Below are positions 127-64,000 of a DNA stretch of 64,000 nt, piece by piece. A program made the position numbers and the translations under genes. The DNA comes from a virus. Position 1 is the stretch's first letter. Each line of letters starts with the position of its first letter. The stretch is from the IMG/VR virus record IMGVR_UViG_3300045988_120604. One strand, given 5' to 3'. The notes under the pieces are model-generated. The model ran no database searches and was not told where the DNA came from. It saw only the letters and a list, made by a program, of their open reading frames with translations.

Positions 127-3030
127 GTGTGGTATTCATTTTGTTCGCCTGATATTTATTTCAACAAGCCCGAACTTCCAAATGAAGTATGTATAGACGG
201 GTTTCAAAGAGGAATGTCTGTAGGCAGTTTTATACCTGTCGAAGATCATCCAAAATGGACTATCTTAGGTCCTGCCGCTTATACGATGGCTGCGTCACTT
301 GCCGCAGTTGAATCAAGTGCCACAATAGCCGCTATGATAGCAGAAGAGCTTCAGGTAAGGGCTCAGTCTGGATACATAGGAGGGTCGGCTGGTCTTACCG
401 GAGGAGGATTCCTAACGAATTTAAGTGTGGCCATGCTGTTTTCTTCAATGGTGTCAACCATTAGTCAAACTCTTGCTAAGGGCCCGATATTGTACGGTAA
501 GTACCGTTATGATTGGCTTAATACGTTTATAAACAATGGACCAAGACGTAATCATGCATGGTATTATACTTCTGTAGGATTATATAATTCAATGATAGGT
601 ATAACGGACCAGGATAAGTATGAACGAAATTTTGCTCGTGGTTTATCTTCTGTTAAGTACATGAAGTCCGGTGTATATCCTATGATGGATGCCAGTATGT
701 CATCTAAATGGGGAACCGGTAAAAACGATAATGAGGGACGATTCTTATTTGTTAATAATATAGATCGTGAATCTTCGTTATTTTTATCATTTGGTGATCC
801 AGGTGAAAAGGGAGATGGTAAATCGAAATATTTATTGGAATATCCGAACTATGTCTACAACTACGACAGTAGCCGTATAGATGATTCGGTTATTGCTGGA
901 AGAGATGTTGTAGCAGGAAGAACATTCGAGCAATCCAAATCAGTTTCATACATCTGTTCTCCGTATATGAGGCTTATGCGATATAGGCCGGATCAATATG
1001 GTCAAATAGAAGATATAAAATGGATTTCCATAGGTGGATGTGGATTTTTCACTAATGAAAAGAAACTGATGTTCGGTGGTGATACGGTGATAACCAGATT
1101 TTCATTAAAGAGAAAATTTCCTGTTTTTTATAATAGTGCTTTTGGTATTGGAGATATGATACCTTTCCCTTACATGGATTATAGAAATGTAGGATATCCA
1201 AGATATTTTGTTAATTATGATACAGGGGAAGATGCGCTTGAAACCACGGATAACGAACGTTTCAATAGTTGGACATCGTCTAATAAAGGAAGATATGCTT
1301 TTTACCCAAATAGGAAGAGCTTGTATGAATTGAACGGTGACACCTCCGGTAAGTATGTAGATGGCAGATTTTATACATGGTTCTATGGTATTCCTCAGTT
1401 CCTTGTAGAATCTGAAATAAATTGTAATTTCAGATTAGAGGGCCCTCAGCCTCATGAATTATTCTATCCAAAAGTAGGAGATTTTGTTTGGTGGACACAA
1501 GAAAAGAACGTATCTATCCATAGGGACAATGATTACAAGATAAGTCCTATCTATTCATCAAGAATGACATTGACACCTAATGTATTGCCGGCAACATACG
1601 AACGTCGTTTTTATGATTGTGCTTACCAGCGACCTAATGGTGTTATATGGAGTAGGGCTGACGTATCTGAAAACAGTCAAACAGATCCGTGGCTAACGTA
1701 CAAGCCTATGGACTATCATGAGTTTCCAACCAGCAACGGGAAGCTTATTCACATGAAGCGTATTGAATCCGATCAGATTCTTGTCAGGTTCGAGGATCAG
1801 GTTTCACTCCATAACGCCATAGACGTAATCAAGGAGCGCACCTCCCCGGGGCAGGCTGAGATGGGCACCGGCGGTCTGTTCGCGTCCCGTCCTCTGGAGT
1901 ACAACACGACCGACCTCGGTTATTCTGGAACCCAGAGCACTGAAATAATTAGTTCAGAATTTGGTCACTTCTGGGCAGATACTAAAAGAGCACAGGTGTT
2001 TATGACCGACCCGAACGGACGTAATCTTAAGGAACTTAGTGTAGGTGTCAGACATTGGCTTAAGCGTCATCTTCCGTTTAAGATTCTTAGATACGGAATA
2101 ACTAATATCTTAACCGGTACGGAGATGACAGAAGAAGATACGGATAATAAATTTATTGGTCTTGGTCTGTCTCTTGGATGGGATAACAGGTATAAGAGGG
2201 TGTTTATTACTAAAAAAGATTATATACCAGTACAGAATCCGGCATATTATAAATATGATGGTGGTAGGTTTTTGTACAATGATACAGAGATATCATTAAA
2301 GGATGAGCGATATTTCAAGGATGTGTCATTCACTATCGGATATTCTTGTTTGAAGCAAGAATGGATTTCTTATTATTCGTTTTGTCCCGATTATTATATA
2401 GAACAGCAACAATATTTCCAGACAGGAATAAACTTCCCGGCATTAGACGAGGAAGGTGGCTTATGGAGTCATTTGTTGACGAATAAGAGCTTCCAGACAT
2501 TCTACGGAACAACATATCCGTTTATATTAGAAGTGCCGATAAAAGAGAAATATAATGGCTCTACGCTGGCTTCTGTAGAATACGAGCTTGATGCAAGGAA
2601 ATACGTCGATGATGTGAATTACACTCTTGATAGAAAAGTAGGTTTAGATACGATAACTATCTACAACGACACAAACAACTCAGGTGAAATTCATCTTGTT
2701 CCAGAAGAAAAGAATAATTTAGCGCAACGTATATCGTATCCGAAGATCGTAGGCGACCATACCGAGGTTCTGGATACTGAAGTATATAGAAGACATAAGT
2801 TAAACGACTTCTTTAATAGGGTTGACGATGACCGATCTGAAACACCTATCTGGATCAAGGACGATGACGATATAAATAAGTCAGTTAATCCTGATTCTCT
2901 TAATTTTAGACGGTCATGGCTTGATAGGTTGCGTGGTAGTTGGATGCTGATGAGGATAAAGAAAGTAATTAGCAACCGGAAAATTATATTCCAGTGGTTG
3001 ATTTCTGAAGATAAGATTAAGAATAGATAA
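127..3030 (+). CDS. Large virion/structural protein (967 aa). The frame is open back to window position 1, so the true start may lie upstream; GTG at 127 is preceded by aaaggagg.
   Basis: Long uninterrupted ORF. SD-like aaaggagg lies 6-13 nt upstream of GTG 127. Composition is Y/W/N/D-rich and beta-type. No recognisable catalytic motif. Confidence 0.6.
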   Translation: MWYSFCSPDIYFNKPELPNEVCIDGFQRGMSVGSFIPVEDHPKWTILGPAAYTMAASLAAVESSATIAAMIAEELQVRAQSGYIGGSAGLTGGGFLTNLSVAMLFSSMVSTISQTLAKGPILYGKYRYDWLNTFINNGPRRNHAWYYTSVGLYNSMIGITDQDKYERNFARGLSSVKYMKSGVYPMMDASMSSKWGTGKNDNEGRFLFVNNIDRESSLFLSFGDPGEKGDGKSKYLLEYPNYVYNYDSSRIDDSVIAGRDVVAGRTFEQSKSVSYICSPYMRLMRYRPDQYGQIEDIKWISIGGCGFFTNEKKLMFGGDTVITRFSLKRKFPVFYNSAFGIGDMIPFPYMDYRNVGYPRYFVNYDTGEDALETTDNERFNSWTSSNKGRYAFYPNRKSLYELNGDTSGKYVDGRFYTWFYGIPQFLVESEINCNFRLEGPQPHELFYPKVGDFVWWTQEKNVSIHRDNDYKISPIYSSRMTLTPNVLPATYERRFYDCAYQRPNGVIWSRADVSENSQTDPWLTYKPMDYHEFPTSNGKLIHMKRIESDQILVRFEDQVSLHNAIDVIKERTSPGQAEMGTGGLFASRPLEYNTTDLGYSGTQSTEIISSEFGHFWADTKRAQVFMTDPNGRNLKELSVGVRHWLKRHLPFKILRYGITNILTGTEMTEEDTDNKFIGLGLSLGWDNRYKRVFITKKDYIPVQNPAYYKYDGGRFLYNDTEISLKDERYFKDVSFTIGYSCLKQEWISYYSFCPDYYIEQQQYFQTGINFPALDEEGGLWSHLLTNKSFQTFYGTTYPFILEVPIKEKYNGSTLASVEYELDARKYVDDVNYTLDRKVGLDTITIYNDTNNSGEIHLVPEEKNNLAQRISYPKIVGDHTEVLDTEVYRRHKLNDFFNRVDDDRSETPIWIKDDDDINKSVNPDSLNFRRSWLDRLRGSWMLMRIKKVISNRKIIFQWLISEDKIKNR

Positions 3031-3166
3031 ATTACAATATTTAATAAGTTGAAAATAAGTAGTTTTTATTTTGTGATTTAATAATAGTTGAATGTATTTG
3101 TAGCGCCTATCTGTCCGAGATGGATCGATAGGCGCTTATTTATTAACAATAAAATGATGTAAAATT

Positions 3167-3916
3167 ATGAAAAGTAACGTGTTATTGCAATCAGAAAGCA
3201 GAGAATTGTTGGGTAGAAACATCTCTGTTATGTCAAAAGACGGTTTTGTGTGTATAACAGAGGTAATGGAAGCTTTGACTGAAAAGAGGGAAAAACATGG
3301 TTTGGCTCCAAAAAGATTAGATGATTTAATGAGTACAAAAGGATTTCAAGAGAAAATGTATGCTTTAGTTAAGAGACTGAATATAAACAATATATGTACT
3401 GCGGTAAAAATCGCAGTACAAAAAAACGATCTGTGTATTAGCAAGCCATATGATCTTAAAAAATATCATATGGCTTACAGAAAAGGAAAAGGAAAAGATC
3501 AGAAATGGTTTGTGGATCCTTATTTCTTTGTAATGGTTGCATTGGAATTAGATCCAGATATATATGCGAGTGTGGTTATATGGCTTACTAATGGCCTTAT
3601 CAAGAATAGAAATATGGCAGGTGATGCTTATATAAGAACATGTAAATCTGTAGGATCACTTGTAAAAAATAAAAGCGAATTATCCGATAAGATAAAAAGG
3701 ATAGCAAAGGCTATTAATTTTATTGTATTCAATAAACATGAGGATGGGATAAGAAATATGGCAACGGAAGAACAACTTAATGATATAACAGAATTAGAAA
3801 TAGCCATAAGTTCAATAATAGACGGAGGATTTATAGCAAATTACAATGATCTTATATCCTATTTAGGTAAAGAGTGGAAAAAGAAATGGGGTAATCCGAT
3901 TATGGCTCTAAATTGA
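3167..3916 (+). CDS. KilA-N (APSES-type) DNA-binding domain protein
   Basis: N-terminal ~100 aa looks KilA-N-like. The C-terminal half is paralogous to ORF 41160..41927 (shared ...MVALELDP.IYA.VV.WLT..LI.NR...GD.Y / NFIVFNKHE..IRN.AT.EQL). Confidence 0.5.
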   Translation: MKSNVLLQSESRELLGRNISVMSKDGFVCITEVMEALTEKREKHGLAPKRLDDLMSTKGFQEKMYALVKRLNINNICTAVKIAVQKNDLCISKPYDLKKYHMAYRKGKGKDQKWFVDPYFFVMVALELDPDIYASVVIWLTNGLIKNRNMAGDAYIRTCKSVGSLVKNKSELSDKIKRIAKAINFIVFNKHEDGIRNMATEEQLNDITELEIAISSIIDGGFIANYNDLISYLGKEWKKKWGNPIMALN

Positions 3917-4029
3917 CATGCTTTTTCTTACGCAAGAAGGTCTTCGTAAGAACTTAAATAAAATAGCCGAAGGACGAGTAGCATCATTCTTCGGCTATTT
4001 TATTTACCTTTGTTGAAAAACAGATTGTT

Positions 4030-4443: not shown

Positions 4444-7399
4444 GTCAGATTGGAAACCTTCAGAAAATATTCTTAAATATTTGAAGTCGTGGGAAAAATT
4501 TAGGTCAAAACCGTATGACGATGGTGAAGGAAATATTACTGTCGGATACGGATTTAACTTGCCTCACCTTCTTAAAAAATACAAGAAGGGTATAACGGAA
4601 GAGCAGGCGGACAAAGAATTTGCAGGCGTAGTAAATACGTTCGTTCCTGAGTTTAGGAAACTTACTCCAAACTTTGATAGTTTAAATAATAATCAGCGTG
4701 ATGCTCTTTTCAGTTTATACTACAATGCCGGTGCTGATACTTATATGAAAAGTCCTATGCTATTCAAATATCTTAAAGAAGGAGATTTTGATAAGGCGGT
4801 TAAGGAAATAAATCATGACGAATGGAAAGACGACATGGAAGGCCAGAAGAAGCGCCGGGCCTTCGAACGCCGTGTGTTCTCTACGCCGACAGACCAGCCT
4901 TGGACGGTGGATGACGACAGTAACTACGTCCTGGTTGAAAACAAGCCCGTAGAGGACAAATCTGTAGGAGAAGGTACTGATGATCCAAAATACGAAGACG
5001 CTCGCCATGTGGAAGCTAAATATGGTTATACAGGTTATGTGGGTAGAGGATATGACGGAAATAAGGTCAGGGTATCTGATTCGAATATGAAATCAGTTGG
5101 CATATCCAATAACGCTGATCCTGATAAGTGGTATGAATCCGTTAATCCAATATTAGACACTGATCCTATTAGTTTGATTGCCGATTTTATTCCTACTGTA
5201 AAACGAATGTTGGATCCTAATAGGGAGCGATCAGGGGAAGATACAGCCACAGATTTTGAAGAAAAAATGTGGAAGGCTTACACTGACGGAGATATAAGTA
5301 GGCTGCCGGCAAGCAAGTATCGTTTTGATGATGATGATGATAATGCTCAGTACGTGGGATTGCCTCAAGAACAAGCCATTTTGATACAATCTTTATTAGA
5401 TAAAGAATATATAAACAACATGCTTGACGAGGCATATAAGGATGCTGATGAAAAAAGTAAACGAAAAATAAGAGATTATAAGAAGGTCCTTGATAAACTA
5501 AATAAAAATATATTTGAAAATCCAGGAAAATGGATTTTAGTAAATGAAGGTGTAAGTCCATTTAGAGAAGAAGTATATGGTGACAATTTTGAAAAAGTAA
5601 ACGAAGCTTCCGGATTAGGTGCGTTGAAGAATTTCAGTGTAAGATGGGATCCTGATGCCGGTATGTTAGATGTGAAGGATGATTATGATTTTAGTCGAAA
5701 GAAGATAGCGGAAGACATCATACCGGAAAGGGATGTCCCTCTTAGAATAAGGGAACGTATCAAATACGATCCTAAGAAAGGTAGTGTGCTTCGAAATAAT
5801 GACAAGGCTTTACCTAAAAGGTTTGTAAGGAAATACGAAGAAGGTGGAGAAGCTAAGTATTGGTGGAGCAATCCAGACAAGAGAGATGAGGTTATAAAAA
5901 GACAAGATGACAATGGGGAGTGGCAAGAAAAGAGGAGGAGATTACTTGAACAAGCTCATTCAGATCTTGAAAAAGGTGAAATTGATGAGGACGAATTTAG
6001 AAGAATAGCCGGGTTTTCAAATAGTGAAATAGGAAATTTGATAATATCCAAAGATGGAAACGGGGAAGAAATAGGAGCTATTATAAATAATCTTTTAGAT
6101 TCCATAGATATAGATAAGGTAAAAGAGGGAATTGATGATGCTAAAGAAGAGAGGGAGAACAAGAGCAGGGAGGATGCTTACCCTTATAAGTTAATGGCCG
6201 AATCTTTGCTTACACTTGCGGACGTTGCTTCTTCTACACCAGGAATGCTCAGATTATATAACAAAATGGGATTAAGGTTGATGCCGATTCTTAAGACAAT
6301 AGCAGAAAGTAGCAAAATACAAACCATAGCTGGATTGTCTAATGTGGGTGTTGACGGAAGCCAGATTGCCTTAGATCCAGAAGGAGATAATACTTTTAAC
6401 TACGCCGGCATACTTGGTGGAGCCGCCGAGGCAATAGGAGGAACGAATGTGATAAGGAATATGTCTTTTATGGGAAGATATGGGAATAGGGTAGATGATG
6501 TACTTGATATTGCAAATCCTATTATATCAACATTAGGTGTAGTAGATGATGTAAGTAAGATGAAAGAAGGTGGAGTAATTGGCAAGCAGCGTGAAGCATA
6601 TGAATACTTTACTAATAAGAGAGGTATGTCCAAGATACAGGCGCTTGCTATCATAGGTAATCTCATGGCTGAATCCGGTCTTAAAGATGACATATATGGA
6701 GACAATAGAACATCATACGGCATACAGCAATGGCATAATGAACGCATGGATAAGTTATTCAAGCATGCCAAAAAGAAAGGTCATTCTACACCCACATTCA
6801 AAGACCAACTTGAGTTCTTGGCTGACGAATACGAAGGGAAAACCGGATATTCTAATTTCTTATACACAAGAAAAGGAAAAGAAGGACCAGGGTATTACAA
6901 CTACAGCCGGCAGGATTTTATGAACGCCGATAACCTTAAAGATGCTGTAGTAGCTTGGAACCAAGGAGCAGGACGTCCTCATAAAAGCGTGATACGAAAC
7001 GATGACCGTTATAACTATGCTATGGAGGTTGCTAAAAATCTTGGTTTGGATATTGAAGAAAATCCCGTATCTTCGTATGGTCAAATGGGATTCGGAGATG
7101 ATGCTGAAATAGCAGCATCAGTAACACTTCCAGAGGTAGAAGTGGCAGCCGCCCTCCCTAACCCGGAAGCCCCGTCCCAGGAGGAACAGTCCGAGGAAGA
7201 GAGATTCCGTACATGGACTGAAACGTATGGTAAGGACATCATAAATCATTTACTGACGTTAGACGGGAAAAAGGACAGTGATTACAGCATGATGTATAAA
7301 CAGCATGAAAAAGAAAGCGAAGAGGATAAGAAAATGGCTTTGATTAATGCCGTGCTTCCCAATATACAGCTTCGCATTAAAGGCGTCACTGATAATTAG
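4427..7399 (+). CDS. Virion-associated peptidoglycan hydrolase: N-terminal GH24 lysozyme-like domain, acidic/coiled middle, C-terminal phage-tail-lysozyme-like domain
   Basis: N-terminal WEKFRSKPYDDGEGNITVGYGFNL aligns with T4 lysozyme [24 protein letters not shown] (Glu/Asp/Thr positions conserved). C-terminal IQALAIIGNLMAESGL...SYGIQQW matches the phage tail lysozyme signature. The likely start is ATG 4427, preceded by aaggagg (the ORF track starts at 4376). Confidence 0.65.
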   Translation: MTKKSKSDWKPSENILKYLKSWEKFRSKPYDDGEGNITVGYGFNLPHLLKKYKKGITEEQADKEFAGVVNTFVPEFRKLTPNFDSLNNNQRDALFSLYYNAGADTYMKSPMLFKYLKEGDFDKAVKEINHDEWKDDMEGQKKRRAFERRVFSTPTDQPWTVDDDSNYVLVENKPVEDKSVGEGTDDPKYEDARHVEAKYGYTGYVGRGYDGNKVRVSDSNMKSVGISNNADPDKWYESVNPILDTDPISLIADFIPTVKRMLDPNRERSGEDTATDFEEKMWKAYTDGDISRLPASKYRFDDDDDNAQYVGLPQEQAILIQSLLDKEYINNMLDEAYKDADEKSKRKIRDYKKVLDKLNKNIFENPGKWILVNEGVSPFREEVYGDNFEKVNEASGLGALKNFSVRWDPDAGMLDVKDDYDFSRKKIAEDIIPERDVPLRIRERIKYDPKKGSVLRNNDKALPKRFVRKYEEGGEAKYWWSNPDKRDEVIKRQDDNGEWQEKRRRLLEQAHSDLEKGEIDEDEFRRIAGFSNSEIGNLIISKDGNGEEIGAIINNLLDSIDIDKVKEGIDDAKEERENKSREDAYPYKLMAESLLTLADVASSTPGMLRLYNKMGLRLMPILKTIAESSKIQTIAGLSNVGVDGSQIALDPEGDNTFNYAGILGGAAEAIGGTNVIRNMSFMGRYGNRVDDVLDIANPIISTLGVVDDVSKMKEGGVIGKQREAYEYFTNKRGMSKIQALAIIGNLMAESGLKDDIYGDNRTSYGIQQWHNERMDKLFKHAKKKGHSTPTFKDQLEFLADEYEGKTGYSNFLYTRKGKEGPGYYNYSRQDFMNADNLKDAVVAWNQGAGRPHKSVIRNDDRYNYAMEVAKNLGLDIEENPVSSYGQMGFGDDAEIAASVTLPEVEVAAALPNPEAPSQEEQSEEERFRTWTETYGKDIINHLLTLDGKKDSDYSMMYKQHEKESEEDKKMALINAVLPNIQLRIKGVTDN

Positions 7400-7535: not shown

Positions 7536-7879
7536 CGAGCTAATGATCCGAACCTACGCTTGGGCTAACGCTATCCTGCCTCACAACACACGACGGCCTC
7601 TCCTACCCGCCTGCCTGCTTATCTCGTGGCTACTCGTGAAACTGTTATCGCTTCTCTCAACCTCACTCCCTTCGGTCGATTCGGTTTCAATCGCTTTATA
7701 TAGATATCGAGCTAATGATCCGAACCTACGCTTGGGCTAGCGCTGTCCTGCCTCACAACACACGACGGCCTCTCCTACCCGCCTGCCTGCTTATCTCGTG
7801 GCTACTCGTGAAACTGTTATCGCTTCTCTCAACCTCACTCCCTTCGGTCGATTCGGTTTCAATCGCTTTATATAGATAT
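7536..7879. repeat. Perfect tandem direct repeat, 2 copies x 172 bp (2 mismatches, both A->G), relatively GC/pyrimidine-rich, non-coding
   Basis: Unit cgagctaatgatccgaacctacgcttgggcta(a/g)cgct(a/g)tcctgcctcacaacacacgacggcctctcctacccgcctgcctgcttatctcgtggctactcgtgaaactgttatcgcttctctcaacctcactcccttcggtcgattcggtttcaatcgctttatatagatat occupies 7536-7707 and again 7708-7879. Confidence 0.95.
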
Positions 7880-9452: not shown

Positions 9453-12293
9453 ATGAAATTACGAATCATAAAAAATCGTCCGATATTCGCTCCTGGCGGT
9501 AGTGTTCAGGATAAGAAACAGGATATTAATGTATCCTCTACTCAGCCTATTCTTGATTATGGAACGCCTGTTAATAAATGGGGTGAATCTGATATTCAGA
9601 ATATATATATGCCTTCTGATGTGATTTTAGAAACAGAGGAGGGGGAGATAAATCCATTTAGTAGTATGCCTACATCCGATCCGTTTTTTGAAAATCATGA
9701 TGCAGGATATGCAGGATATCTCGCTGATAATAGGGGTATGGTTAAAAACGTAGAGAAATCAGTCGTTGATAATGCAATGAATGTAGGTGGTGTTGATGCT
9801 GATTCCTCTAAAGAAAAACGTTCCCAAGATGGTAATCCTCTTGATCCTATGACTACCCCATATTATTCACCCGATCTAACCGGCAGAGCTCAAATGTTCG
9901 GTACAAGTCTTGGCCGGATAAGAGCCGGTAATAAGATCGGTGCTAATGTGGCTCAAGCTACCTTGTCTGGTGTTAGTTTAGGATTAGGTCTTACCCGTAA
10001 TATCATGGGAGCTTCATCTGCTGCGTATGCAGCCAGCAGAGACGAGCAGGCAGCGAGGGAAAAACTTGCCAAGGAGCGCCGGCAGCAATTCATCAAGTGG
10101 GAACGTGAAGGTGGTGGCGTGAATTTAGGTAACGGTCAGAAGATAGATACGTCTGATATGACCGGCGAATATATTTATCCTCTTCCCAAGTCTATGGAAG
10201 ATGCTGCGAATGTAGAGATAGAGAAAGGCGAGTACGTGCTGACTCCTGACTCCGTAGGGCCTATGGAAGCCAAAGGGAACAGACATGAAAATGGTGGCAC
10301 TCCGGTTGATTTGCCAGAGGCTTATATTGTTTCCGATTATCGTAAGATAGATGATGAGTTTGCCTCTTACGTTAGAGAAAATTATGGTATTAAGGCAACG
10401 TCAAAAGATACATACGCTACACTCCTTGATCGATATAAGAAGAAGATTGGTTTGTCTGATAAGTACGAAGATCAGGAGCGTGTATATAAGAGATTAGAGA
10501 AAAATGAAGATGTAAAAGACAAAAACACATCTAATCTTAATGCTTCTATTCTTTCCAAGTACGTCAATGAAAACCAGAAAGAGATAGACGAGCTTGAAGC
10601 ACAATTTCGTTCTTTCGCTGAAATCGTTTATGGCAAACAGGAAGAATCTAAGCGTAACGAGAAGATGGATGCTTTTTTCAGGGATGGCGGGGTTGTTGAT
10701 CTGAATCAGGTAAAGAAACAAGCTAAGGCTTTTAATATTGCAGAATCAGATGCTAAGAACTGGATATATGACGAGTATGTTAAGCAAACCAGAAAAATGG
10801 CTGAAGGTGGACCTACTCAGAAGGAGCTGGAGGAGCTTAGAAAGAATGCTATCGGCTACAATAAGCTTATCAATCAGTTATTTGGACGAACTCTTAATAT
10901 GACTGTATCTGATGTTAGTGGTCGTGAGCAGATTCTTAATCCTGATTCCAGTGTCAATGCCAACCAGAATCTCCAACATAGAAGCAATTTAGGATACGGC
11001 AGGGTAAATGATAAGGCGGTATCTAATTTGCTCGACGTAAACCGATGGGCTAACAAGTACAATACGGATGGTGATTTTGATACAGAAGGTTTCCAGAAAG
11101 GATACAACAGGCAATTAAATGCATTGTGGGCGTTAGCTGATGTAGGCGCTATTACGAATGCTGATGCAGCCAAGAAATTCAGAGATGAATACGGATTCTG
11201 GGGCCAGGACGCCGGAAGCTACGGAGGGAATCAGGCTTATAATTCATTTGCCGTAGATGATAAGTTTGGTCAGACAACAGCTACTCGTTCTTATTATGGG
11301 TTGGACGTTGTTTCGGCAGAGCAAAAAAGATTGTTAAACGAAAAAGGAATAAAGAATTATGTTGACTTATTTGGTGATAAATCTGATGCCGCTAAGAAGA
11401 TTCTGGGCTCCGATTATAATAAGTTTGTTGCTTTAAGAGATAGTGGGTTAATGCCGGAAATAGACTTCGTTCTTGAGTCTGTTAAACCAGAAATGAAGCC
11501 TATTGAGGCCGGTCCCATAGCACCAGGCCTTACACCGCCTAAGATTGGATCTCCTGGAAGGATAGAGGTAAAACCGAAAGCAAGTACGCCTACGACTGCA
11601 ACCGACACCGATACAGAGGAGGTGGTTGAAGACAACGGACCTAAAGGACAGGGCAGACCGGCGGCGTTCGGTCCTATCTTCCCGGAGATGCTGAGAACGC
11701 TCGATACAGGCTTGGAGATAGAGGGATTGGAAAGGCATCAGGCTCCGAGAATAGATCCGGTTCTGCAATCTGCTGATCAGTATATCAACGAGCTCAACCG
11801 CGCGACATCGGCTCAGTTGGACGCAGTAGGTGACGTGCCCGACTCCCAGCGCTCTGCTATTCTGGCTAATATGAACGCCATAGCCGGAAGCAATATAGCC
11901 AAGTACATTAACGAAGTAAATTTCAATAACGCAAGGCAAATAAACGAAGCTGATAGATTCAATGAAATGGCTTATGTTCAGACAGACGATAAGAACATAG
12001 CGGAAAGGCAACGTTATGAATCTGGGTTATTGAAGGCTATGGCTATAAGGGATGAAAATCTTGCTCGTTATTATGATAGCATAAACAGCGAAATACAGAA
12101 TAAGTTCAATGTTCGTACATCGTTGAATACCATAGCTTCCATAGCTCCGAATATGAGAATGCTTCCAAGTGGCCAAATTATTTACGTTCAAGGTAATCAG
12201 GATGTGATGAATATGGGTGATTATTCTACACCTTACTTGAGAAGTTTAAATGAAGAAGATGACGAAAATAAAAGAAGAAGGAGGACCAAATAG
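9453..12293 (+). CDS. Large virion/structural protein (~947 aa)
   Basis: Long ORF with a likely start at MKLRIIK (ATG 9453); the track starts at 9381. Confidence 0.6.
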   Translation: MKLRIIKNRPIFAPGGSVQDKKQDINVSSTQPILDYGTPVNKWGESDIQNIYMPSDVILETEEGEINPFSSMPTSDPFFENHDAGYAGYLADNRGMVKNVEKSVVDNAMNVGGVDADSSKEKRSQDGNPLDPMTTPYYSPDLTGRAQMFGTSLGRIRAGNKIGANVAQATLSGVSLGLGLTRNIMGASSAAYAASRDEQAAREKLAKERRQQFIKWEREGGGVNLGNGQKIDTSDMTGEYIYPLPKSMEDAANVEIEKGEYVLTPDSVGPMEAKGNRHENGGTPVDLPEAYIVSDYRKIDDEFASYVRENYGIKATSKDTYATLLDRYKKKIGLSDKYEDQERVYKRLEKNEDVKDKNTSNLNASILSKYVNENQKEIDELEAQFRSFAEIVYGKQEESKRNEKMDAFFRDGGVVDLNQVKKQAKAFNIAESDAKNWIYDEYVKQTRKMAEGGPTQKELEELRKNAIGYNKLINQLFGRTLNMTVSDVSGREQILNPDSSVNANQNLQHRSNLGYGRVNDKAVSNLLDVNRWANKYNTDGDFDTEGFQKGYNRQLNALWALADVGAITNADAAKKFRDEYGFWGQDAGSYGGNQAYNSFAVDDKFGQTTATRSYYGLDVVSAEQKRLLNEKGIKNYVDLFGDKSDAAKKILGSDYNKFVALRDSGLMPEIDFVLESVKPEMKPIEAGPIAPGLTPPKIGSPGRIEVKPKASTPTTATDTDTEEVVEDNGPKGQGRPAAFGPIFPEMLRTLDTGLEIEGLERHQAPRIDPVLQSADQYINELNRATSAQLDAVGDVPDSQRSAILANMNAIAGSNIAKYINEVNFNNARQINEADRFNEMAYVQTDDKNIAERQRYESGLLKAMAIRDENLARYYDSINSEIQNKFNVRTSLNTIASIAPNMRMLPSGQIIYVQGNQDVMNMGDYSTPYLRSLNEEDDENKRRRRTK

Positions 12294-46175: not shown

Positions 46176-47876
46176 TTATTTTTTGTCATCTCCTTTTAGC
46201 TTCTTTAAAGTATCTGCAATCGGAAGCTGATCAATGACTCCCAATGCCGGAGCGACGGTCTTGACAACATTGTTAAGGAAATTACCGGTACTGTTCTGAC
46301 CGCCGTCAAATACTGTGATATTTCCGAGGTTAATGTGCTCAAATGCCTTAACCTGTTCTCCGGCAATTTCTTTCCACTGATTAACCATCTTGTACTGGAT
46401 AGCGATCTGAGGATTGGATTCTGCTGCTTCCACCATGGCCTTAAATCCGTCGGCTTCTGCCATTAACGACTTTTTCTTACCTTCGGCTTCTGCCTCCAGC
46501 TTCATCTGAATAGCTTTTGCCTCCGCCTCAGCTTTTGCCAAATGTGCTGCTGCCTCAGCCTCAGCCCGGCGTTTGATCTTCTCGGCCTCGGCATCAGCTT
46601 GCAAGATAGCCTCTTCCTTCTGGGTTTCAGCCGGCACAATCTTTTCAGCCTTAAGCGCAGCCTGAACTTTCTTAGCCTTAGCTTCTTCCACTTCTTTGTC
46701 GGCAAGCTCTTTTGCTGTTTTTACAGCCGCTTCCGATTTAACTTTTTCTTCTCCGGCCTTCTTCTCTGATTGAGCTTTGATGATCTGTAGTTCTGATACT
46801 GATACAGCAACCTCCTTCTGGGCATTGTTGTATCCTATAGACGCATTTTTCTCAGCCTCAGCCTTCTTAATCTGAGCTTCAGAGTCTTGTATTGCTATAG
46901 CTGCTTCCTTGTCAGCTTCAGCCTTATTCTTTCCGACTTCTTCCATTCTTTCAGCCTCGGCTTTATTTACTTCAAGTTCTGCCTTAGATCTTACGATCGC
47001 CGATTCCTTGTCGGTTAAAGTTTTTGCGATAACCGCAGCCCTGTCTCTATCTGCTTGAGCTACACCGATCTGTTTCTCTTTGTCGGTTAAAGCTAAAGCT
47101 ATTTCTTTTTCTTTCTTCGTTTCAGCTACTATTGTCTCCTTTTCTTTTTCAGTACAAGCAATTTGAATCTCTTGTTCTTTTTTGGTATTAGCCACAGCCG
47201 TTTCTTTTTCCTTCTGCTGTACAGCAATTTTAATAGCACCCAGCTTCTCCTGTTCTTCGATATTAGCCTGTGCCTCGTTCAGAGCCCTACTTTCAGCTTC
47301 CTTACCAAGGTTCATAATATAACCGGCTTCGTCTCTGATGTCACTGATGTTGATGTTCAGGAGGTAAAGACCTAACTTGTTAAGCTCGTTATCAATGTTC
47401 TTTCTCGCCTTATCCAAAAACTCATCCCTGTCAGAATTAAGTTTTTCGATTGTCATTTCAGCAATAATCAAACGCATCTGACCGTAAACGATGTCCGTAA
47501 TAAGATTTTCAGTAGATTCGGTATCCATCCCCAAAAGTCTTTCTGCCGCATTTTGCATGATTTCGGGATTTGTACTGATAGCTACTGTAATGGTCGTAGG
47601 TACATCTACTCTAATATTCTGAGATGACAAAGCACCGGTAAGCTTGCAATCTATTTGCATAGGCTCCATTGACAAAACATCATAGCTTTGAATAATAGGC
47701 AAGACAAATGCCGCTCCACCATGATATAATTTCGCCGATTTCTTTTCCCCACCTGTCTTACCGTAAACGACCAAGACCTGATTAGGTTTACATCTACGAT
47801 ACCTTGATAAGACTCCGATGATTGTCAAAATAATCACTACAGCTAAGATAGCTGACACGTACATGATTGTTGTCAT
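46176..47876 (-). CDS. Flotillin-like SPFH/band-7 membrane protein (FloT/YuaG-like)
   Basis: N-terminal TM helix, SPFH domain (NQVLVVYGKTGG...VLPIIQSYDVLSMEPMQID...), and ~250 aa of A/E/K-rich coiled-coil (flotillin domain). Confidence 0.8.
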   Translation of the reverse strand: MTTIMYVSAILAVVIILTIIGVLSRYRRCKPNQVLVVYGKTGGEKKSAKLYHGGAAFVLPIIQSYDVLSMEPMQIDCKLTGALSSQNIRVDVPTTITVAISTNPEIMQNAAERLLGMDTESTENLITDIVYGQMRLIIAEMTIEKLNSDRDEFLDKARKNIDNELNKLGLYLLNINISDIRDEAGYIMNLGKEAESRALNEAQANIEEQEKLGAIKIAVQQKEKETAVANTKKEQEIQIACTEKEKETIVAETKKEKEIALALTDKEKQIGVAQADRDRAAVIAKTLTDKESAIVRSKAELEVNKAEAERMEEVGKNKAEADKEAAIAIQDSEAQIKKAEAEKNASIGYNNAQKEVAVSVSELQIIKAQSEKKAGEEKVKSEAAVKTAKELADKEVEEAKAKKVQAALKAEKIVPAETQKEEAILQADAEAEKIKRRAEAEAAAHLAKAEAEAKAIQMKLEAEAEGKKKSLMAEADGFKAMVEAAESNPQIAIQYKMVNQWKEIAGEQVKAFEHINLGNITVFDGGQNSTGNFLNNVVKTVAPALGVIDQLPIADTLKKLKGDDKK

Positions 47877-50008: not shown

Positions 50009-51142
50009 TTAATACAATGACTGTTCTTCTTTTGTCTCTTGTTCTTGTTCCTGATTGTCCGTAACGTCTTCCACAGTATAGAGCTTGGGCGGCGTCGGCG
50101 GCTGGTTGGGGTTCACGAACTTCGTCCCGCCCTCCCCGTACATCCACCCATACCCCGGCAGAATCTCTGGGTGGATTGTATTAGTAAGCTCTTCCATACT
50201 AACTTGCCTTACCTTCAGTATATGATGAAACACCAGTCCGGCTGTCCTGAATGATGTTTTGTTTTCAGTTTTAAACCTATCAAGAGTCTGATACCAATCT
50301 TTCCCAAATATCATATACTTATCCAGCCCGTACCTACGAGGATTGTGCAAACCTATCATTAACGTACATAACTGACCCAGCGTATCAGATTGGTAAAAAT
50401 CAGAAAGACGCGGAGGCTGCTCTTGTGGGCTTTTTATCCTTCCTTCTATCTCTCTGTTGAATTGTGATATGATGAGGAAAAATATGTTTTTATATACTAA
50501 TTTAGCTTCGTTCATAACCGCCACCAAATCATCTATAGCCGACTTAGGATCTAACCCCATTCTTTTTATCAAAGCAATATGATCGACTTTAAATATTATA
50601 AGACGTTTGTCTTTGTGTTTGGTAGCTATATGATACACAGCCGCCTCAAACTCTTTTACCGTACACGGAGCATCGATGTATATTATATTATTCCTGATTT
50701 CACCTTGAAGGATTTCAAACATCCTCATCTCTTCCACTGTATTAGAATCTTGCCTTCTTAATATTTCAGGAGCCCGCTTTTTCATATCCCGGCTCATTCT
50801 ACGAAGAAGAAGATCTTGAGGATTCATTTCGAACTCGCAATTAACAAGAAAATAATCTTCTGCTTGCGGGTTGATCATCGGATTCATCACATTTTCCAAT
50901 ATCTTTTGGGCCACATACGATTTACCTACAGAGGGCCGGGCTCCTATGGCAATAGCATGCTGAGGGAAAATACCTCCAAGCAAAGCCTCATCAATATAAT
51001 CGTATCCGGTTTTAGCGGGGATAAGCTCTCCCCGCCTGTATTTCAAGATATTCTCATACGCCTCTTCCATGACCTGTTTAGAGGTCTTGAATATCCTTCT
51101 TATATCTATCCTATTTGCTATCTCCTCGTGCATTTTTGTCAC
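50009..51142 (-). CDS. DnaB-family replicative helicase (RecA-like C-terminal domain)
   Basis: GYDYIDEALLGGIFPQHAIAIGARPSVGKS (Walker A), IIFKVDHIALIK (H2/Walker B-like), IISQFNRE. Confidence 0.7.
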   Translation of the reverse strand: MTKMHEEIANRIDIRRIFKTSKQVMEEAYENILKYRRGELIPAKTGYDYIDEALLGGIFPQHAIAIGARPSVGKSYVAQKILENVMNPMINPQAEDYFLVNCEFEMNPQDLLLRRMSRDMKKRAPEILRRQDSNTVEEMRMFEILQGEIRNNIIYIDAPCTVKEFEAAVYHIATKHKDKRLIIFKVDHIALIKRMGLDPKSAIDDLVAVMNEAKLVYKNIFFLIISQFNREIEGRIKSPQEQPPRLSDFYQSDTLGQLCTLMIGLHNPRRYGLDKYMIFGKDWYQTLDRFKTENKTSFRTAGLVFHHILKVRQVSMEELTNTIHPEILPGYGWMYGEGGTKFVNPNQPPTPPKLYTVEDVTDNQEQEQETKEEQSLY

Positions 51143-52582: not shown

Positions 52583-53573
52583 GATATTTTTCTTTTACCT
52601 TGTTATTGATTATCAAATCTGCCACATCATCTCCGTCTCCTACATTTTCAACATTTTGAAGATAGTTCGATACTTTTATCCTTGACTTCATCATCATCCC
52701 ATCTATCTTTTTACTCCATGTCTCAAATGCTTGTCCTTTGTCCGGAAAAGCTACGGTCTTTCTATCTTTTAAAACATCTATCACTTCCGGTCTTAGATTC
52801 TGCAACCCACCGGTAGCTACAAATAACTCATCCGGTTTATTCACAGCGCATATAATAGCCGTCTTTTCTGATTCCACCAAATTAACCACCTTATCCGGAT
52901 ATTGGCTTAGAAGATGTTCTCCGAACAGGCATTGTCTAAACAAGAAGTCTCTTGCATGCAACGAGTGATAAAACATAACATGAGGCCGCTCATTGTCACC
53001 GTCTTTTTCTTTCACTCTTTTTACATCAATCTCATTCCCCTGGCTGTCGGTCTTTATATAAAAGTCCATGATCTTGCCGGTTCTACATACAAAATCTTTG
53101 TCTATCTGCCAGAATATACAACACCCTTTCCATCCCCATAAGTCCATTGTTCCGACATGATACCTTCTGAACACATCAGATACCCTTTCTTTTCCCCATA
53201 GAGACGATAAAAATCTAAATACGGTGTTTCTATCGTCTGGAACCACAGTCCTCTCAAACTCGCTAAAAGGTATGTAATTTACAACGTCAGGATTTACAGG
53301 AGGACGATAAGCTCTTATACACTTGTTTCCCGAGATCCAAAGATCTTTGTCACCTACATCCTTACCAGTAGGTCGTTTATCGTAACCGCAAGTCCGTTCA
53401 TGATCGCATCTTCCGAACTCGTTGCCAACAACCTGGCCTGTTGCCACATCAATATAAGGGGTGAGACACCGGCTTCTCCCGCAAGCTGGGCAGGTTAGCT
53501 TCAGTCGGCTCCTTCCGGGCCTGCGGTCAAGTTGAAACCGGGGTACGTTTTCGTATCTTCTGAAATCAAGCAT
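52560..53573 (-). CDS. DNA primase (N-terminal zinc ribbon plus TOPRIM domain)
   Basis: TCPACGRSRC...CDHERTCGY zinc ribbon. TOPRIM-like LVESEKTAIICAV...FVATGGLQNL...AFPDKGQAFETW. Confidence 0.55.
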   Translation of the reverse strand: MLDFRRYENVPRFQLDRRPGRSRLKLTCPACGRSRCLTPYIDVATGQVVGNEFGRCDHERTCGYDKRPTGKDVGDKDLWISGNKCIRAYRPPVNPDVVNYIPFSEFERTVVPDDRNTVFRFLSSLWGKERVSDVFRRYHVGTMDLWGWKGCCIFWQIDKDFVCRTGKIMDFYIKTDSQGNEIDVKRVKEKDGDNERPHVMFYHSLHARDFLFRQCLFGEHLLSQYPDKVVNLVESEKTAIICAVNKPDELFVATGGLQNLRPEVIDVLKDRKTVAFPDKGQAFETWSKKIDGMMMKSRIKVSNYLQNVENVGDGDDVADLIINNKVKEKYHEPGCLY

Positions 53574-54146: not shown

Positions 54147-55459
54147 ATTACGAATCTTTTAGACATTTCCTCAGCAATATCATATACGACAATATGATCC
54201 TCTTCATTGTACGGCTTATTGATATTCAGCACTCCTTTTCTCACTTTAAACCTCTTATCTTTTCTGATATGATTCAACATCCCTTGTTGGAACACACAGT
54301 CCGCTTTCTCCATAGCAGCATTTTTATCAGACCATTCTTTTAGCGTATAACCTTTACTGTTCGTGCTTTTTGGAGAAAAATTCATAATACGTGCATCAAT
54401 TCCGTACCAGTTTTTAACCATTCTCCTTTCAGCCTCCAATTGAAAAGCATGTTCATTTCGTATGTCACCTGATTTAAAATCTAAGATAACAATCTCTTCT
54501 TTCTCCACTTCTCTTACTTCCTTCTTCGGATCTCCTTTTTTGAACTGCCCCGTAGCCCTTTGATACACGGCTCCAAAATAACCTTCTTCTTTGTATTTGA
54601 ATGTCATTTTAACCATCGCATCTATCGGCGTAGCTACCAAATAATCTTCTAATGACAATATTCTTTCAATCATCATCGGCTTAACCTTATACTCCGAACA
54701 AAACTTAGCAAACTTCATAACTCTGACAATCATATCGTCAAGATCATCTATGCTACCAAAGAATTTGTCAAGATTCTTTTTTGATATTTTAAGCTTGCCT
54801 TCTTGCACTGTCTTAACTATAAAACTTCGATTTAAGACCATATCTCTACCTGTCAAGTACAATCCATATAGGTAGTGCATGATCGTTCCTTTATCTGCAT
54901 CATATTCTGATACTTCTTCCGGGTTGCGACCAATCATCCTCATCTCCTGTCTCCATTCTTGAAGAGCCGTCTTGTCATCTACGAATCCGTCTCTTATCAT
55001 GGTTGTTACCGAAGCATATATCTTGGCTGTCCCATCGTCCATCTTTCTTACATAAAAACGATTACCGTCTAATGTCAATCTTACGAACTTGGGAGTCTCG
55101 ATCTTCTTTAACTCATCACAGATATAAAACGGCTCTAACGTTTCCTGATTTTCTGTAAACAGATTCGAATCCTCTTCTCCAGGGTTAGGAGCGGCTTCCT
55201 CCGCCGGAGCTTTCGGTTCCTCCTTCTGGGCCTGCTCTGTCTCAGGCGCCGGCTCTTTAACTACTGGAGCCTGTCCGCCTCTTTCTGCTATGTCTTTATT
55301 CTTTATCAAAGACATAACTTCTTTTTTTAACTGCTCCGGTGTTTGATTGGGATCTGATACCGACATCACAACATCGTTCATTCTAAACAACGTATTTCCT
55401 TCTCCTTCCACCATAGGCACAAACCCTAAATCTGTCAATATTTTTATTTTCTCTTTCAT
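54143..55459 (-). CDS. Protein with an acidic Pro/Ala/Glu-rich N-terminal linker and a possible PD-(D/E)XK nuclease-like core
   Basis: EIVILDFKSGD...QLEAERRM gives a D-x-K followed by an acidic pair. Weak. Confidence 0.3.
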   Translation of the reverse strand: MKEKIKILTDLGFVPMVEGEGNTLFRMNDVVMSVSDPNQTPEQLKKEVMSLIKNKDIAERGGQAPVVKEPAPETEQAQKEEPKAPAEEAAPNPGEEDSNLFTENQETLEPFYICDELKKIETPKFVRLTLDGNRFYVRKMDDGTAKIYASVTTMIRDGFVDDKTALQEWRQEMRMIGRNPEEVSEYDADKGTIMHYLYGLYLTGRDMVLNRSFIVKTVQEGKLKISKKNLDKFFGSIDDLDDMIVRVMKFAKFCSEYKVKPMMIERILSLEDYLVATPIDAMVKMTFKYKEEGYFGAVYQRATGQFKKGDPKKEVREVEKEEIVILDFKSGDIRNEHAFQLEAERRMVKNWYGIDARIMNFSPKSTNSKGYTLKEWSDKNAAMEKADCVFQQGMLNHIRKDKRFKVRKGVLNINKPYNEEDHIVVYDIAEEMSKRFVI

Positions 55460-55619
55460 GATCTTCCTCTAATCAATTCTTCTTTAATACAATGTAACAC
55501 TGTTTCCACTTCATCTTTATCTCTATCTTTCACTGCGATAGCTATATCCTTACCATAACTCTCTCTCTCTCTGTATGTGAGCATAAAAGATAGTTTCATC
55601 GTCAGCTTCTATTCTTATT

Positions 55620-57990: not shown

Positions 57991-59052
57991 TTAAACCCAT
58001 CCCAGTTGTTTTGCTATTCTCTCCATTTCGTTATATGCTATCCTATGACATCCAGCGGTTAGCAAATCGTTTTCGTACCGATTTAGACTCCACTGGTGAC
58101 CGGTGATGTCCTCCACCAGACCGTGCCGAAACTCGGCGCCCCGGTGCATTGCCGACACAGCCCGCCACAGTTTTCTGGCTTCTGCTATTCCAATCTTTAT
58201 CTGTTTACTTGTCTCAATAATATTTCCTTTTATACGAATCCAGGCGTTAGGTTTTTCACTAGGAATATAGAAAGGTGTATTCAAGAAATTGATTTCTCCT
58301 GACTTCCACTCTTCCAGTTTTTCATCAAAATCCTTGTAACGGGCTTCTTCTTCCTTTCTTAATCTCTCTAATTTTATTCTTTCTCTTTCTTCCTCACCCT
58401 TTCTCCATCTTTCAGATCTTTCTGAATACTTAATCCATGTACCTTCCCCGCAAACTTCATCAACAATCACATTTACGGTCCCTAACACTTTTAATCCTTG
58501 ATGATCTAATAAAATTTGAAAGATGCGTTTTAATTCATGTACGTGCTTACGCTTGATACTATCTCCGCTCTTGGATAATTCATGATTGGTTCCAAGCCAA
58601 TCATTAGCACTCTTTTTAAGGATACTCTTAGCAGTCCCCATGTTAAAGAACTGAATGTAATCCATCATATTCCCAAAAGCGCCCCAAATATCTGTATAAG
58701 ATAATTCTGTTTTAGCTCTTTTGTATTTTTCAATAGACTTCTTAATTGATTCCAGTTTGCTGGCAACAAACCTCATATTACCAGTATCCGATATATTATC
58801 CCCTACACTGAAAACCATTGCCCAAGTTGGTATCGCATTACGAACATAGCATTGATGTTTGCTCGTGGTAGCAGAATAATAATCTTCATTTATCAGGTAT
58901 GCTTTCTTCCCTTGTTTGTTTTTTACTATTCTCCCGACTTCAAAGTGATGCCCATAAGAATAAATACTTGTACCTTCAAAGAAGAAATTGCTCCCTGATG
59001 CTGATTCTCCTTGTTCATGAGCCCACAAGTGAGCGACCATTGAATTGTTCAT
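57991..59052 (-). CDS. Hypothetical protein (353 aa)
   Basis: ORF. Confidence 0.55.
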   Translation of the reverse strand: MNNSMVAHLWAHEQGESASGSNFFFEGTSIYSYGHHFEVGRIVKNKQGKKAYLINEDYYSATTSKHQCYVRNAIPTWAMVFSVGDNISDTGNMRFVASKLESIKKSIEKYKRAKTELSYTDIWGAFGNMMDYIQFFNMGTAKSILKKSANDWLGTNHELSKSGDSIKRKHVHELKRIFQILLDHQGLKVLGTVNVIVDEVCGEGTWIKYSERSERWRKGEEERERIKLERLRKEEEARYKDFDEKLEEWKSGEINFLNTPFYIPSEKPNAWIRIKGNIIETSKQIKIGIAEARKLWRAVSAMHRGAEFRHGLVEDITGHQWSLNRYENDLLTAGCHRIAYNEMERIAKQLGWV

Positions 59053-60348: not shown

Positions 60349-60516
60349 TACTGTAACCTTACGCCATGTGATGCAGCCCGCGTCTCCCCTGAACCGGAGC
60401 TCTTCGCACTTTACCCCACCTGTCTCCTGTGGCGTCCGTCACTATCAGCCGTTGACCTGAATCAGTATTATTTGTAATTCTTTGGTGTTCTTTCTGATAA
60501 TACACCCTCATGATCC
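60349..60516 (-). CDS. Small ORF (55 aa; MRVYYQKEHQRI...) containing a GC-rich patch
   Basis: Strong SD aaggagatgggggg upstream of the ATG; fills a 213-nt gap. Confidence 0.3.
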
Positions 60517-63423: not shown

Positions 63424-63903
63424 TTAGATGTAAGTTATGCTGCCAACATTAATCTGCATTATATCATTTTCCAGCGTAATGAAATTATTTTGTTTTATGG
63501 GTCCAAACATCAATCCATATACACTTACTGTATTAAACAGCCTAACAGTGTGAAAATCTTCATTTGGCTCTACCCTGTTTTTATCCCAATATCCCAAATC
63601 GTTGATAGTTGCCGGGAATCCTCCTACGTCGTTATACTTATAGTAATCGTTTTGATTGAAAACGATTCCCTTTATTAACAGGTTCCCGATGCTTTTCGTG
63701 TTGAATCCGGACAACGCGATCTGCTCTGAGATATAACTAATCAAACAGTTATGATACGTGTTTGGCTTATCTCCTCTCTCGTTAATAATTTTCTTCCATT
63801 TCTTCGTTAATGGAACCCTAATATCCATATATGTACCAAATACGACTATGTTAGGACATTCTCCTTCAAACTTCGTTAAATCTTCTACTCTCATAATTAA
63901 CAA
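63424..63903 (-). CDS. Hypothetical protein (159 aa)
   Basis: ORF. Confidence 0.5.
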   Translation of the reverse strand: MLIMRVEDLTKFEGECPNIVVFGTYMDIRVPLTKKWKKIINERGDKPNTYHNCLISYISEQIALSGFNTKSIGNLLIKGIVFNQNDYYKYNDVGGFPATINDLGYWDKNRVEPNEDFHTVRLFNTVSVYGLMFGPIKQNNFITLENDIMQINVGSITYI

Positions 63904-63928
63904 ACATTTGTATTGTTTTCGTCGTTCA

Positions 63929-64000
63929 CTATCTGACTAATGTACGGTCCTGGCCACAGACAGCCAGGCCGACCTCATGGCAGGGCAGGCGCCGCCTTAC
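63929..64000 (-). CDS. 3' end of a minus-strand gene entering from beyond the window; GC-rich
   Basis: Open frame from the window edge down to a stop at 63929-63931. Confidence 0.3.
   Translation of the reverse strand, partial: VRRRLPCHEVGLAVCGQDRTLVR

Follow-up and report, generated by a model that had tools for sequence, protein, structure and literature searches.

Among the short DNA segments that stand apart from their surroundings, the GC clusters of yeast mitochondria and the palindromic elements of Rickettsia form mobile repeated families, arriving as insertions and folding into palindromic hairpins, while CpG islands and AT-rich DNA unwinding elements are recognised by their composition and length, not by a motif, and are flexible in position over evolution. 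Here, we describe short blocks of high G+C content (GC islands) in the 64-kb stretch of viral DNA IMGVR_UViG_3300045988_120604 (the window, meaning the whole stretch analysed), which come nearest, among known phenomena, to the tracts of GC-biased gene conversion (gBGC) and to composition-defined elements of the CpG-island kind. Such blocks appear not to have been described previously in phages. Literature searches for phage GC islands or patches, those of crAss-like phages included, found no description of them, and the paper on crAssE-Sib, the relative compared below, says nothing on GC content or base composition (PMC11054128).

By its sequence, the window phage is an Epsilon-group crAss-like phage. 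It matches crAssE-Sib (OR575929.1; 151,256 bp; human gut) at 94-96% identity across about 70% of the window's length, and its counterpart in that genome lies at roughly positions 69,351-144,200. Unlike other Crassvirales, the Epsilon group, of which crAssE-Sib is a member, has no encoded DNA polymerase (PMC11054128), and its own genes include a helicase, primase, clamp and SSB.

GC islands as a nucleotide-level feature

An earlier note on this DNA had listed GC-rich patches inside its genes, and all 18 of the intervals given there were recovered by two independent scans. Sliding windows of 60 bp at a GC of >= 0.62 gave 25 peaks, and a log-odds maximal-segment scan gave 27 segments at a score of >= 14 and 21 at >= 18, against 2.2 and 0.07, respectively, in first-order Markov simulations. 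The 27 islands, nine of them additional to that note (Table 1), have a GC of 60-76% against the 37.7% of the window overall, and a separate composition profile gave 0.66 GC at 19520-19599 and 20320-20399, with surroundings at 0.31-0.42. When the scan was scaled to the GC of each genome, island density came to 3.6 per 10 kb in the window and 2.9 per 10 kb in the whole of crAssE-Sib, compared with 0.6 per 10 kb in the control crAss-like phage cr115_1 and zero islands in 50 kb each of T4 and of Cellulophaga phage phi17:2, the latter being, by DnaB, the closest of the cultured relatives. Moreover, the open reading frames (ORFs, called by a simple longest-ORF rule) do remain intact across the patches, and the example cited at 1843, RTSPGQAEMGTGGLFAS, is in frame with ORF 127-3030. 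The description "inside genes" holds for most islands, though three of the 27 island centres fall outside ORFs, two of them in an intergenic 172-nt tandem repeat.

GC at codon positions 1/2/3 is 0.71/0.59/0.68 within the islands of the window and 0.67/0.60/0.70 within those of crAssE-Sib, as compared with 0.45/0.34/0.35 for the window as a whole. At the third position (GC3), the 0.68-0.70 of the islands stands against 0.35 expected from the amino acids they encode and the codon usage outside them (for the window, 0.675 vs 0.347), and the elevated GC3 claimed before is thus real. Because islands were chosen on GC, their GC3 is slightly inflated, but this does not account for a doubling. The shift is seen for every amino acid with a choice of codons (e.g., 0.87 vs 0.24 for Asp and 0.74 vs 0.36 for Leu) and is repeated in three other lineages (0.79 vs 0.45, 0.56 vs 0.30, and 0.51 vs 0.22). 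Among the encoded residues, Gly, Ala, Pro, and Arg are enriched 1.6- to 3.2-fold, while Lys, Asn, Ile, Phe, and Tyr are depleted. The clearest single case of a coding shift at the nucleotide level is the island at 11789-11857, on a peptide motif (ADQYINELNR...GDVPDSQR) kept by every homolog down to about 30% identity. The window phage writes it as CAG TAT ATC AAC GAG CTC AAC CGC GCG ... GAC GTG CCC GAC TCC CAG CGC, whereas the 53%-identical ortholog of lineage L120 has CAA TAT ATA AAT GAA TTG AAT AGA GTT ... GAT GTT CCT GAT TCT CAA AGA. In fact, the outcome is the opposite of equally GC-rich coding across relatives with comparable windows elsewhere, which the earlier note had named as refuting its proposal: relatives use AT-rich codons for this conserved peptide, and windows of the kind are missing from the control phages. 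In an AlphaFold model of the 970-residue protein (product of ORF 9381-12293), which at a mean predicted local distance difference test score of 59 is only a rough guide, the four islands fall on two helices, one loop, and one disordered linker. Non-coding DNA, 7.1% of the window, carries islands as often as its share of the sequence would predict, and island density is independent of gene length, with a uniform position within genes. Taken together, the islands are a nucleotide-level feature and not a by-product of amino-acid composition, and the idea of a process or constraint at that level, rather than chance, is upheld. An exception in part is the Gly/Ala-rich island at 13545, which is shared at 29% protein identity with a GC3 of 0.45 and is probably protein-driven to some extent.

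The island at 58090-58166 shows how such a block came about. Its crAssE-Sib ortholog is colinear, with no indel between the two genes, but has only 48% GC at this place, and the island therefore arose by substitutions. These number 34 in 77 bp, against a divergence of 22% in the flanks, and are transitions and transversions, synonymous and nonsynonymous, nearly all toward G/C. Likewise, codon alignments of island-bearing and island-free orthologs revealed no indels at the islands 58090, 10007, and 11789.

Our searches for a shared sequence or structure were largely negative. An all-versus-all blastn-short comparison of 46 islands gave best matches of 11-18 nt, near those of shuffled islands (best E 0.001 vs 0.03), though with more weak pairs (531 vs 299), and no motif shared by the islands emerged from k-mer counts or from shuffle-controlled motif counts in four lineages, which bears out the absence of a common motif reported earlier. 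The per-position polymorphism profile shows no invariant core within islands beyond ordinary codon constraint. As to the earlier suggestion of embedded RNA or DNA structures, this finds no support: the mean folding z-score of the 27 islands against dinucleotide shuffles is 0.01 on the plus and -0.15 on the minus strand (with one below -2, at 43311-43358), terminal inverted repeats or palindromic hairpins were not found as an island class, and the window gave no Rfam match at gathering score and no tRNA or tmRNA by ARAGORN.

Fixation bias, turnover, and spacing

We aligned close relatives to the window in two sets of 80 (500-21900 and 39966-57135, about 28 kb covered) and counted changes between G/C (S) and A/T (W). 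Outside islands, 3764 S-to-W against 3671 W-to-S polymorphisms imply an equilibrium GC of 0.371, as compared with an actual 0.377, while inside islands, 315 against 129 imply 0.43, as compared with an actual 0.65. Island S-to-W variants are also rarer in the sample than W-to-S variants (frequency 0.118 vs 0.146, P = 0.036), and W-to-S polymorphisms per W site run at 1.6 times the rate outside (P = 1e-5). The islands are held above their mutational equilibrium, with a fixation bias toward G/C, for which a scaled coefficient of about 1.4 per site would suffice by a back-of-envelope equilibrium calculation that is not a fit. Moreover, islands have similar GC in every covering genome of the 51-80 sampled. 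Linkage decay in the same population is extreme (mean r2 of 0.13 across 90-400 bp, with 75% of site pairs failing the four-gamete test), which indicates very frequent recombination in short tracts. Virion-gene alleles are mosaic in this population, at 76-99% protein identity.

To compare lineages, we used a homolog series for the 970-residue protein, obtained from a 50%-clustered protein search and restricted to full-length homologs, with loci from viral and metagenome collections. Among alleles at 76-99% identity, the islands at residues ~210-235 and 800-825 are common to all, while the linker island varies. Lineages L120 and L190 (53%), L173 (51%), and the L239 type (36%; contigs of 155-159 kb, plausibly the second Epsilon genus) have islands at 1.8-4 per 10 kb, though in different places in this gene. 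The diverged N-terminal half of a 2135-residue protein is similar in this respect, with the islands of the window and of crAssE-Sib lying at different places. More distant relatives, L172 and L171, have almost no islands. Positions differ between lineages at similar density, which shows that islands are gained and lost between lineages while their density is kept.

In crAssE-Sib, the 46 islands have a mean spacing of 3.3 kb and a coefficient of variation (CV) of 0.63, a regularity reached in 0.08% of uniform placements (P = 0.0008). By the Greenwood statistic, none of 4000 simulations was as even, and the largest gap (9.4 kb) is below that of 96% of simulations. This regular spacing runs along the genome across gene borders. 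The window agrees (CV 0.62, P = 0.013), though it is not independent of crAssE-Sib. For other lineages, even spacing is suggestive only, with negative spacing z-scores at eight of nine loci and a combined z of about -1.9 when one locus is taken per lineage (L239, L173, and L120). The island size of 60-100 bp given earlier shrinks somewhat with a smoothed-GC definition, by which crAssE-Sib islands measure 68 +/- 17 bp, none exceeding 93 bp. The block profile has about 0.64 GC over some 70 bp and is down to background within 10-30 bp. Islands are also strand-symmetric, with a GC skew near 0, as compared with +/-0.17-0.22 in the coding background.

Selection, biased conversion, and other explanations

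With a probability of roughly 0.4, we favour the reading that the patches are composition-defined DNA elements kept by weak selection at each site. Such blocks, of about 70-90 bp and 65-75% G+C without shared sequence, strand preference, or secondary structure, would be written in place by AT-to-GC substitutions, mostly synonymous but also changing amino acids toward Gly, Ala, Pro, or Arg. Epsilon-group crAss-like phages would maintain a block for about every 3 kb, at positions that drift between lineages, and a weak per-site bias in the fixation of G/C would hold each block far above mutational equilibrium. We infer that this bias is selection rather than biased conversion; natural selection would then favour a GC-rich duplex of high stability at regular intervals, acting on DNA and not on RNA or protein. 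As for a putative role, replication or genome organisation (stable zones for lagging-strand primers or for DNA-binding complexes) is the most attractive guess, given that the spacing is kilobase-scale, the strands are symmetric, and a phage-encoded polymerase is lacking. The blocks might be priming or hand-off zones, or else a platform for a GC-reading protein, and since no motif is shared, any protein bound there would need to recognise composition and not sequence. In its most specific form, the proposal is that Epsilon crAss-like phages need a sequence-independent GC "clamp" of 70-90 bp about every 3 kb, re-created by selection where proteins tolerate it, for a DNA-level process of polymerase-less phages (such as lagging-strand priming or hand-off to a host polymerase) or as the footprint of a protein that organises the genome. 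We offer this version tentatively, as one that is less likely than not to be right.

Several observations weigh against selection or against the role proposed for it. Islands mismatch crAssE-Sib at 5.3% against 6.0% in their flanks, and so are not more conserved, and the nonsynonymous/synonymous ratio is the same in islands as outside (0.74 vs 0.67). Because both measures match non-island DNA, the signature of a classical constrained element is missing. The frequency-spectrum signal is weak (P = 0.036), and its polarisation was by majority rule in a highly recombining sample. Selection and GC-biased gene conversion, moreover, predict the same shift of the spectrum, and therefore the two are not told apart by it. 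Even spacing outside the crAssE-Sib type is a trend only, and the sharpness of the block edges is partly an artefact of aligning on segment boundaries. Finally, the link to replication is circumstantial, consisting of one co-occurrence (no DNA polymerase) and a 3-kb spacing near the scale of Okazaki fragments.

The strongest rival, which we consider somewhat unlikely yet well worth keeping in view, is gBGC at short-lived hotspots of recombination or repair, where heteroduplex repair would favour G/C and the resulting clusters, as non-adaptive scars, would decay once the hotspot had moved. It accords with the extreme recombination of the population, the W-to-S fixation bias at non-equilibrium composition, the shift at both synonymous and amino-acid-changing sites, the turnover of positions among four lineages in the 970-residue gene, and the lack of motif and structure, a signature documented at hotspot episodes in rodents (PMC12290510). 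Suitable genes are also present, namely a PD-(D/E)XK nuclease in the window and RuvC-like and NinG-like recombination genes annotated in crAssE-Sib. However, linkage disequilibrium (LD) across 15 islands is not significantly below that of matched control spans (mean percentile 0.39, P = 0.17), though the background leaves LD little room to fall further. We saw no cis determinant of a hotspot, the islands are stable in each sampled genome, the over-even spacing is not predicted, and the plateau of about 70 bp with a hard limit near 93 bp suits a footprint better than a decaying gradient. We thus favour selection over conversion because even spacing and bounded length fit a required footprint rather than conversion gradients, and because no excess of recombination was seen while the blocks persist in all sampled genomes. 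This evidence is not decisive.

Considerably less probable is that the islands are degenerate binding or modification sites, in which a short GC-rich sequence (CCGG or GCCGGC) would be read by a methyltransferase, nuclease, primase, or partition protein. The earlier remark that many patches contain CCGG or GCCGGC is correct to the extent that CCGG (32 vs 19 expected) is 1.7-fold, GCCGGC 3-fold, and CGCCGG 5-fold enriched over first-order expectation within the islands of this lineage; CCGG is also 2.6 times as frequent as GGCC genome-wide (185 vs 71), and crAssE-Sib encodes a cytosine-5 methyltransferase. As a marker of islands it is weak, however: islands account for only 32 of the window's 185 CCGG sites, at least one such site occurs in 75% of crAssE-Sib islands compared with 62% of shuffled islands, and in islands of the L120 lineage the site is depleted (3 vs 9 expected). 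Neither is any island position invariant beyond ordinary codon constraint, and the window phage, which lacks the methyltransferase, has kept its islands. In addition, an excess of CAGCAG/GCWGC, tried as an island motif, was accounted for by Gln/Ala/Ser codon repeats.

A lower probability still attaches to rare-codon clusters, that is, some 25 G/C-ending rare codons in a row that would slow ribosomes, for instance for co-translational folding. Most islands do lie in frame within ORFs and use codons that are rare elsewhere, but islands occur in non-coding DNA as well (the tandem intergenic repeat included), codon positions 1 and 2 and the amino acids are shifted too, density tracks DNA length and not gene number, the genomic spacing is regular across gene borders, and the islands of the modelled 970-residue protein would sit in helices, a loop, and a disordered linker alike. 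Least credible are two others. Imported patches, whether conversion tracts from a GC-rich relative (as the earlier note had considered) or in-frame mobile mini-elements, would suit short, sharply bounded, scattered segments in a population with very short recombination tracts, but island-bearing and island-free orthologs are colinear without indels, islands share no sequence beyond chance and lack hairpins and terminal repeats, the window's island columns are not GC-rich in any of eight lineages aligned across the 970-residue gene bar one shared hypervariable linker, the 65-75% GC of islands is far above any relative found, and L171, the highest-GC locus found (47.7% GC), is almost island-free. 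Protein-driven composition, by which islands would merely encode Gly/Ala/Pro/Arg-rich disordered linkers, draws on the enrichment of these residues and on the obvious linkers at 13545-13606, 20317-20422, and 11587-11703, but is refuted as a general explanation by a GC3 doubled for every amino acid, by an island on a conserved helical motif that relatives code AT-rich, and by the non-coding islands, and it fits at most a few cases such as 13545-13606. Overall, each of six alternatives (linkers, RNA structures, motif arrays, pause clusters, GC-rich imports, and mobile mini-elements) fails on at least one of the features that define it. Three further candidates were rejected: a Rho-utilisation-like bias of C over G (the island skew is about 0), a deaminase-type mutational signature (the changes at 58090 mix transitions and transversions), and conserved recombination linkers (boundaries of mosaic blocks between the window and crAssE-Sib miss the islands by inspection, and conservation is no higher in islands than in the DNA beside them).

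GC blocks that are arrayed this regularly, and that prevail over codon usage and even the choice of amino acids, imply some force on the DNA to which current annotation is blind, be it a functional need or a strong drive of conversion. Should it be selection for a DNA-level function, the blocks would be a new class of phage genome element overriding codon usage and protein composition, would point to an unknown step of replication or DNA organisation in uncultured polymerase-less phages, and would provide a simple compositional marker of the clade. If it is biased conversion, they would be an unusually clean, fine-scale case of viral gBGC, useful for studying conversion tract length and protein cost. 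Under either reading, ignoring the islands would distort analyses of codon usage, host prediction, and selection in these genomes.

Island catalogue, neighbouring features, and known systems

Table 1. GC islands of the window, with those additional to the earlier note marked as new.
Position	Feature	GC	Location	Remarks
1833..1919	GC island	70%	ORF 127-3030 (+)	muzzle-protein homolog; conserved in crAssE-Sib 71183-71269
4841..4910	GC island	66%	ORF 4376-7399 (+)	gene part without crAssE-Sib counterpart
7144..7196	GC island	72%	ORF 4376-7399 (+)	
7548..7618	GC island, new	63%	intergenic	copy 1 of 172-nt tandem repeat; C-rich on + strand
7720..7790	GC island, new	66%	intergenic	copy 2 of 172-nt tandem repeat
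10007..10086	GC island, new	62%	ORF 9381-12293 (+)	residues ~209-235, predicted helix; absent in 53%-identical ortholog L120
11200..11228	short weak GC island, new	76%	ORF 9381-12293 (+)	loop; closest alleles only
11587..11703	GC island	60%	ORF 9381-12293 (+)	hypervariable disordered linker; some alleles only
11789..11857	GC island, new	67%	ORF 9381-12293 (+)	on conserved motif NELNRATSAQLDAVGDVPDSQRSAI; motif coded with A/T at third positions in L120
13545..13606	GC island	71%	ORF 12293-15316 (+)	Gly/Ala-rich, GC3 only 0.45; same alignment column in 29%-identical crAssE-Sib ortholog
16402..16441	short GC island, new	75%	ORF 15320-21727 (+)	islands of diverged crAssE-Sib ortholog lie elsewhere
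19525..19595	GC island	72%	ORF 15320-21727 (+)	
20317..20422	GC island	66%	ORF 15320-21727 (+)	Pro/Ala/Gln-rich segment
28967..29047	GC island	69%	small ORF 28881-29108 (+)	
32885..32961	GC island	73%	ORF 31242-37664 (+)	
36935..37019	GC island, new	65%	ORF 31242-37664 (+)	
39011..39090	GC island	70%	ORF 38700-39413 (-)	
43311..43358	GC island	71%	helicase ORF 42353-43774 (-)	sole island with marked hairpin signal (z -2.9, -3.7, two strands)
44736..44824	GC island	63%	PD-(D/E)XK nuclease ORF 44647-45666 (-)	
45820..45868	weak GC island, new	67%	ORF 45663-46022 (-)	
46519..46635	weak GC island, new	60%	ORF 46176-47876 (-)	flotillin-like gene
50087..50174	GC island	68%	DnaB-like ORF 50009-51142 (-)	GC3 0.86; C-terminal extension; overlaps start of ORF 49392-50147
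53458..53526	GC island	68%	primase-like ORF 52560-53573 (-)	near 5' end
55179..55279	GC island	64%	ORF 54143-55459 (-)	
58090..58166	GC island	69%	ORF 57991-59052 (-)	crAssE-Sib ortholog colinear, 48% GC
60362..60451	GC island	63%	between ORFs 59900-60313 and 60527-61327	covered by 50-residue ORF only
63945..63996	GC island	75%	window edge	outside ORF 63424-63903 (-)

Large virion genes occupy the plus strand in the left 38 kb of the window, and replication and small genes the minus strand in the right 26 kb, with products that include a DnaB-like helicase, a primase-like protein (DUF6371 and a zinc ribbon), a superfamily-2 helicase, and the PD-(D/E)XK nuclease. Epsilon crAss-like phages are very common in human guts, with near-identical contigs by the hundreds in each collection searched, and a protein search with the 2135-residue ORF matched only variants of 97-100% identity. 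A scan of bacterial genomes turned up a single contig, of 16 kb in a Vibrio olivae assembly (NZ_JBHMEP010000020.1), which codes for an Epsilon-crAss-like virion protein and carries GC islands as well; it is most likely contamination and not a host signal.

Some islands coincide with unusual local arrangements. The 172-nt unit after ORF 4376-7399 occurs twice in tandem (7536-7707 and 7708-7879, 99% identical), and part of it once more near 8005-8032. The unit is C-rich on the plus strand, has no Rfam match, and might represent a regulatory repeat or the gene of a non-coding RNA; crAssE-Sib apparently has one copy, judging from a single GC island at 77833-77882. ORF 49392-50147 and the DnaB-like ORF 50009-51142 overlap by 139 bp (50009-50147) in different frames, which coincides with a GC island, and the crAssE-Sib annotation retains both counterparts. 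This overlap may be real, or it may only reflect a wrongly called start in GC-rich DNA that is poor in stop codons.

Other differences from crAssE-Sib concern gene content. The cytosine-5 DNA methyltransferase gene (crAssE-Sib 113296-114423) is missing from the window phage, the flanking genes adjoining at window 39948-39967. At window 3030-3988, a 249-residue ORF (3167-3916) without a Pfam match replaces the genes at crAssE-Sib 72401-74808, which are those for tRNA-Tyr, tRNA-Lys, and a Ro60-related protein, and the 64 kb of the window has no tRNA at all. A TnpB-type (IS605 OrfB) gene at window 27455-28380 (-) is 92% identical to crAssE-Sib 64535-65460, where it has another position and orientation, and the element has therefore moved. 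As to word composition, the PstI site CTGCAG is absent from the window (7.5 expected) and from the 151-kb crAssE-Sib genome, and CGCG is 2.7-fold under-represented (22 vs 59, in a composition check of the window and crAssE-Sib). With the excess of CCGG over GGCC, this looks like restriction-site avoidance together with a CCGG-favouring process (methylation protection or very-short-patch repair).

Among known systems, the islands resemble the gBGC tracts of mammals, birds, and yeast (PMC12290510) in being clusters of AT-to-GC changes at synonymous and nonsynonymous sites, above mutational equilibrium, with S-to-W variants at lower frequency and positions that turn over between lineages. Unlike these kilobase-scale gradients, however, the islands measure about 70-90 bp and have a plateau, are over-evenly spaced, show no detectable drop of LD, and belong to a phage system without known hotspot machinery. 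With rare-codon pause clusters they share in-frame runs of codons that are rare in the genome, but they are also found in non-coding DNA, change amino-acid content, and are spaced by genome and not by gene. Like the yeast mitochondrial GC clusters and Rickettsia palindromic elements, they are short atypical segments strewn across an AT-rich genome, some in frame within genes, whereas each island is unique in sequence, colinear with island-free orthologs, and non-folding. Finally, the phage islands are akin to CpG islands and unwinding elements in being defined by composition and flexible in position over evolutionary time, though they lie inside coding sequence at a regular kilobase spacing and, relative to unwinding elements, are of the opposite composition.

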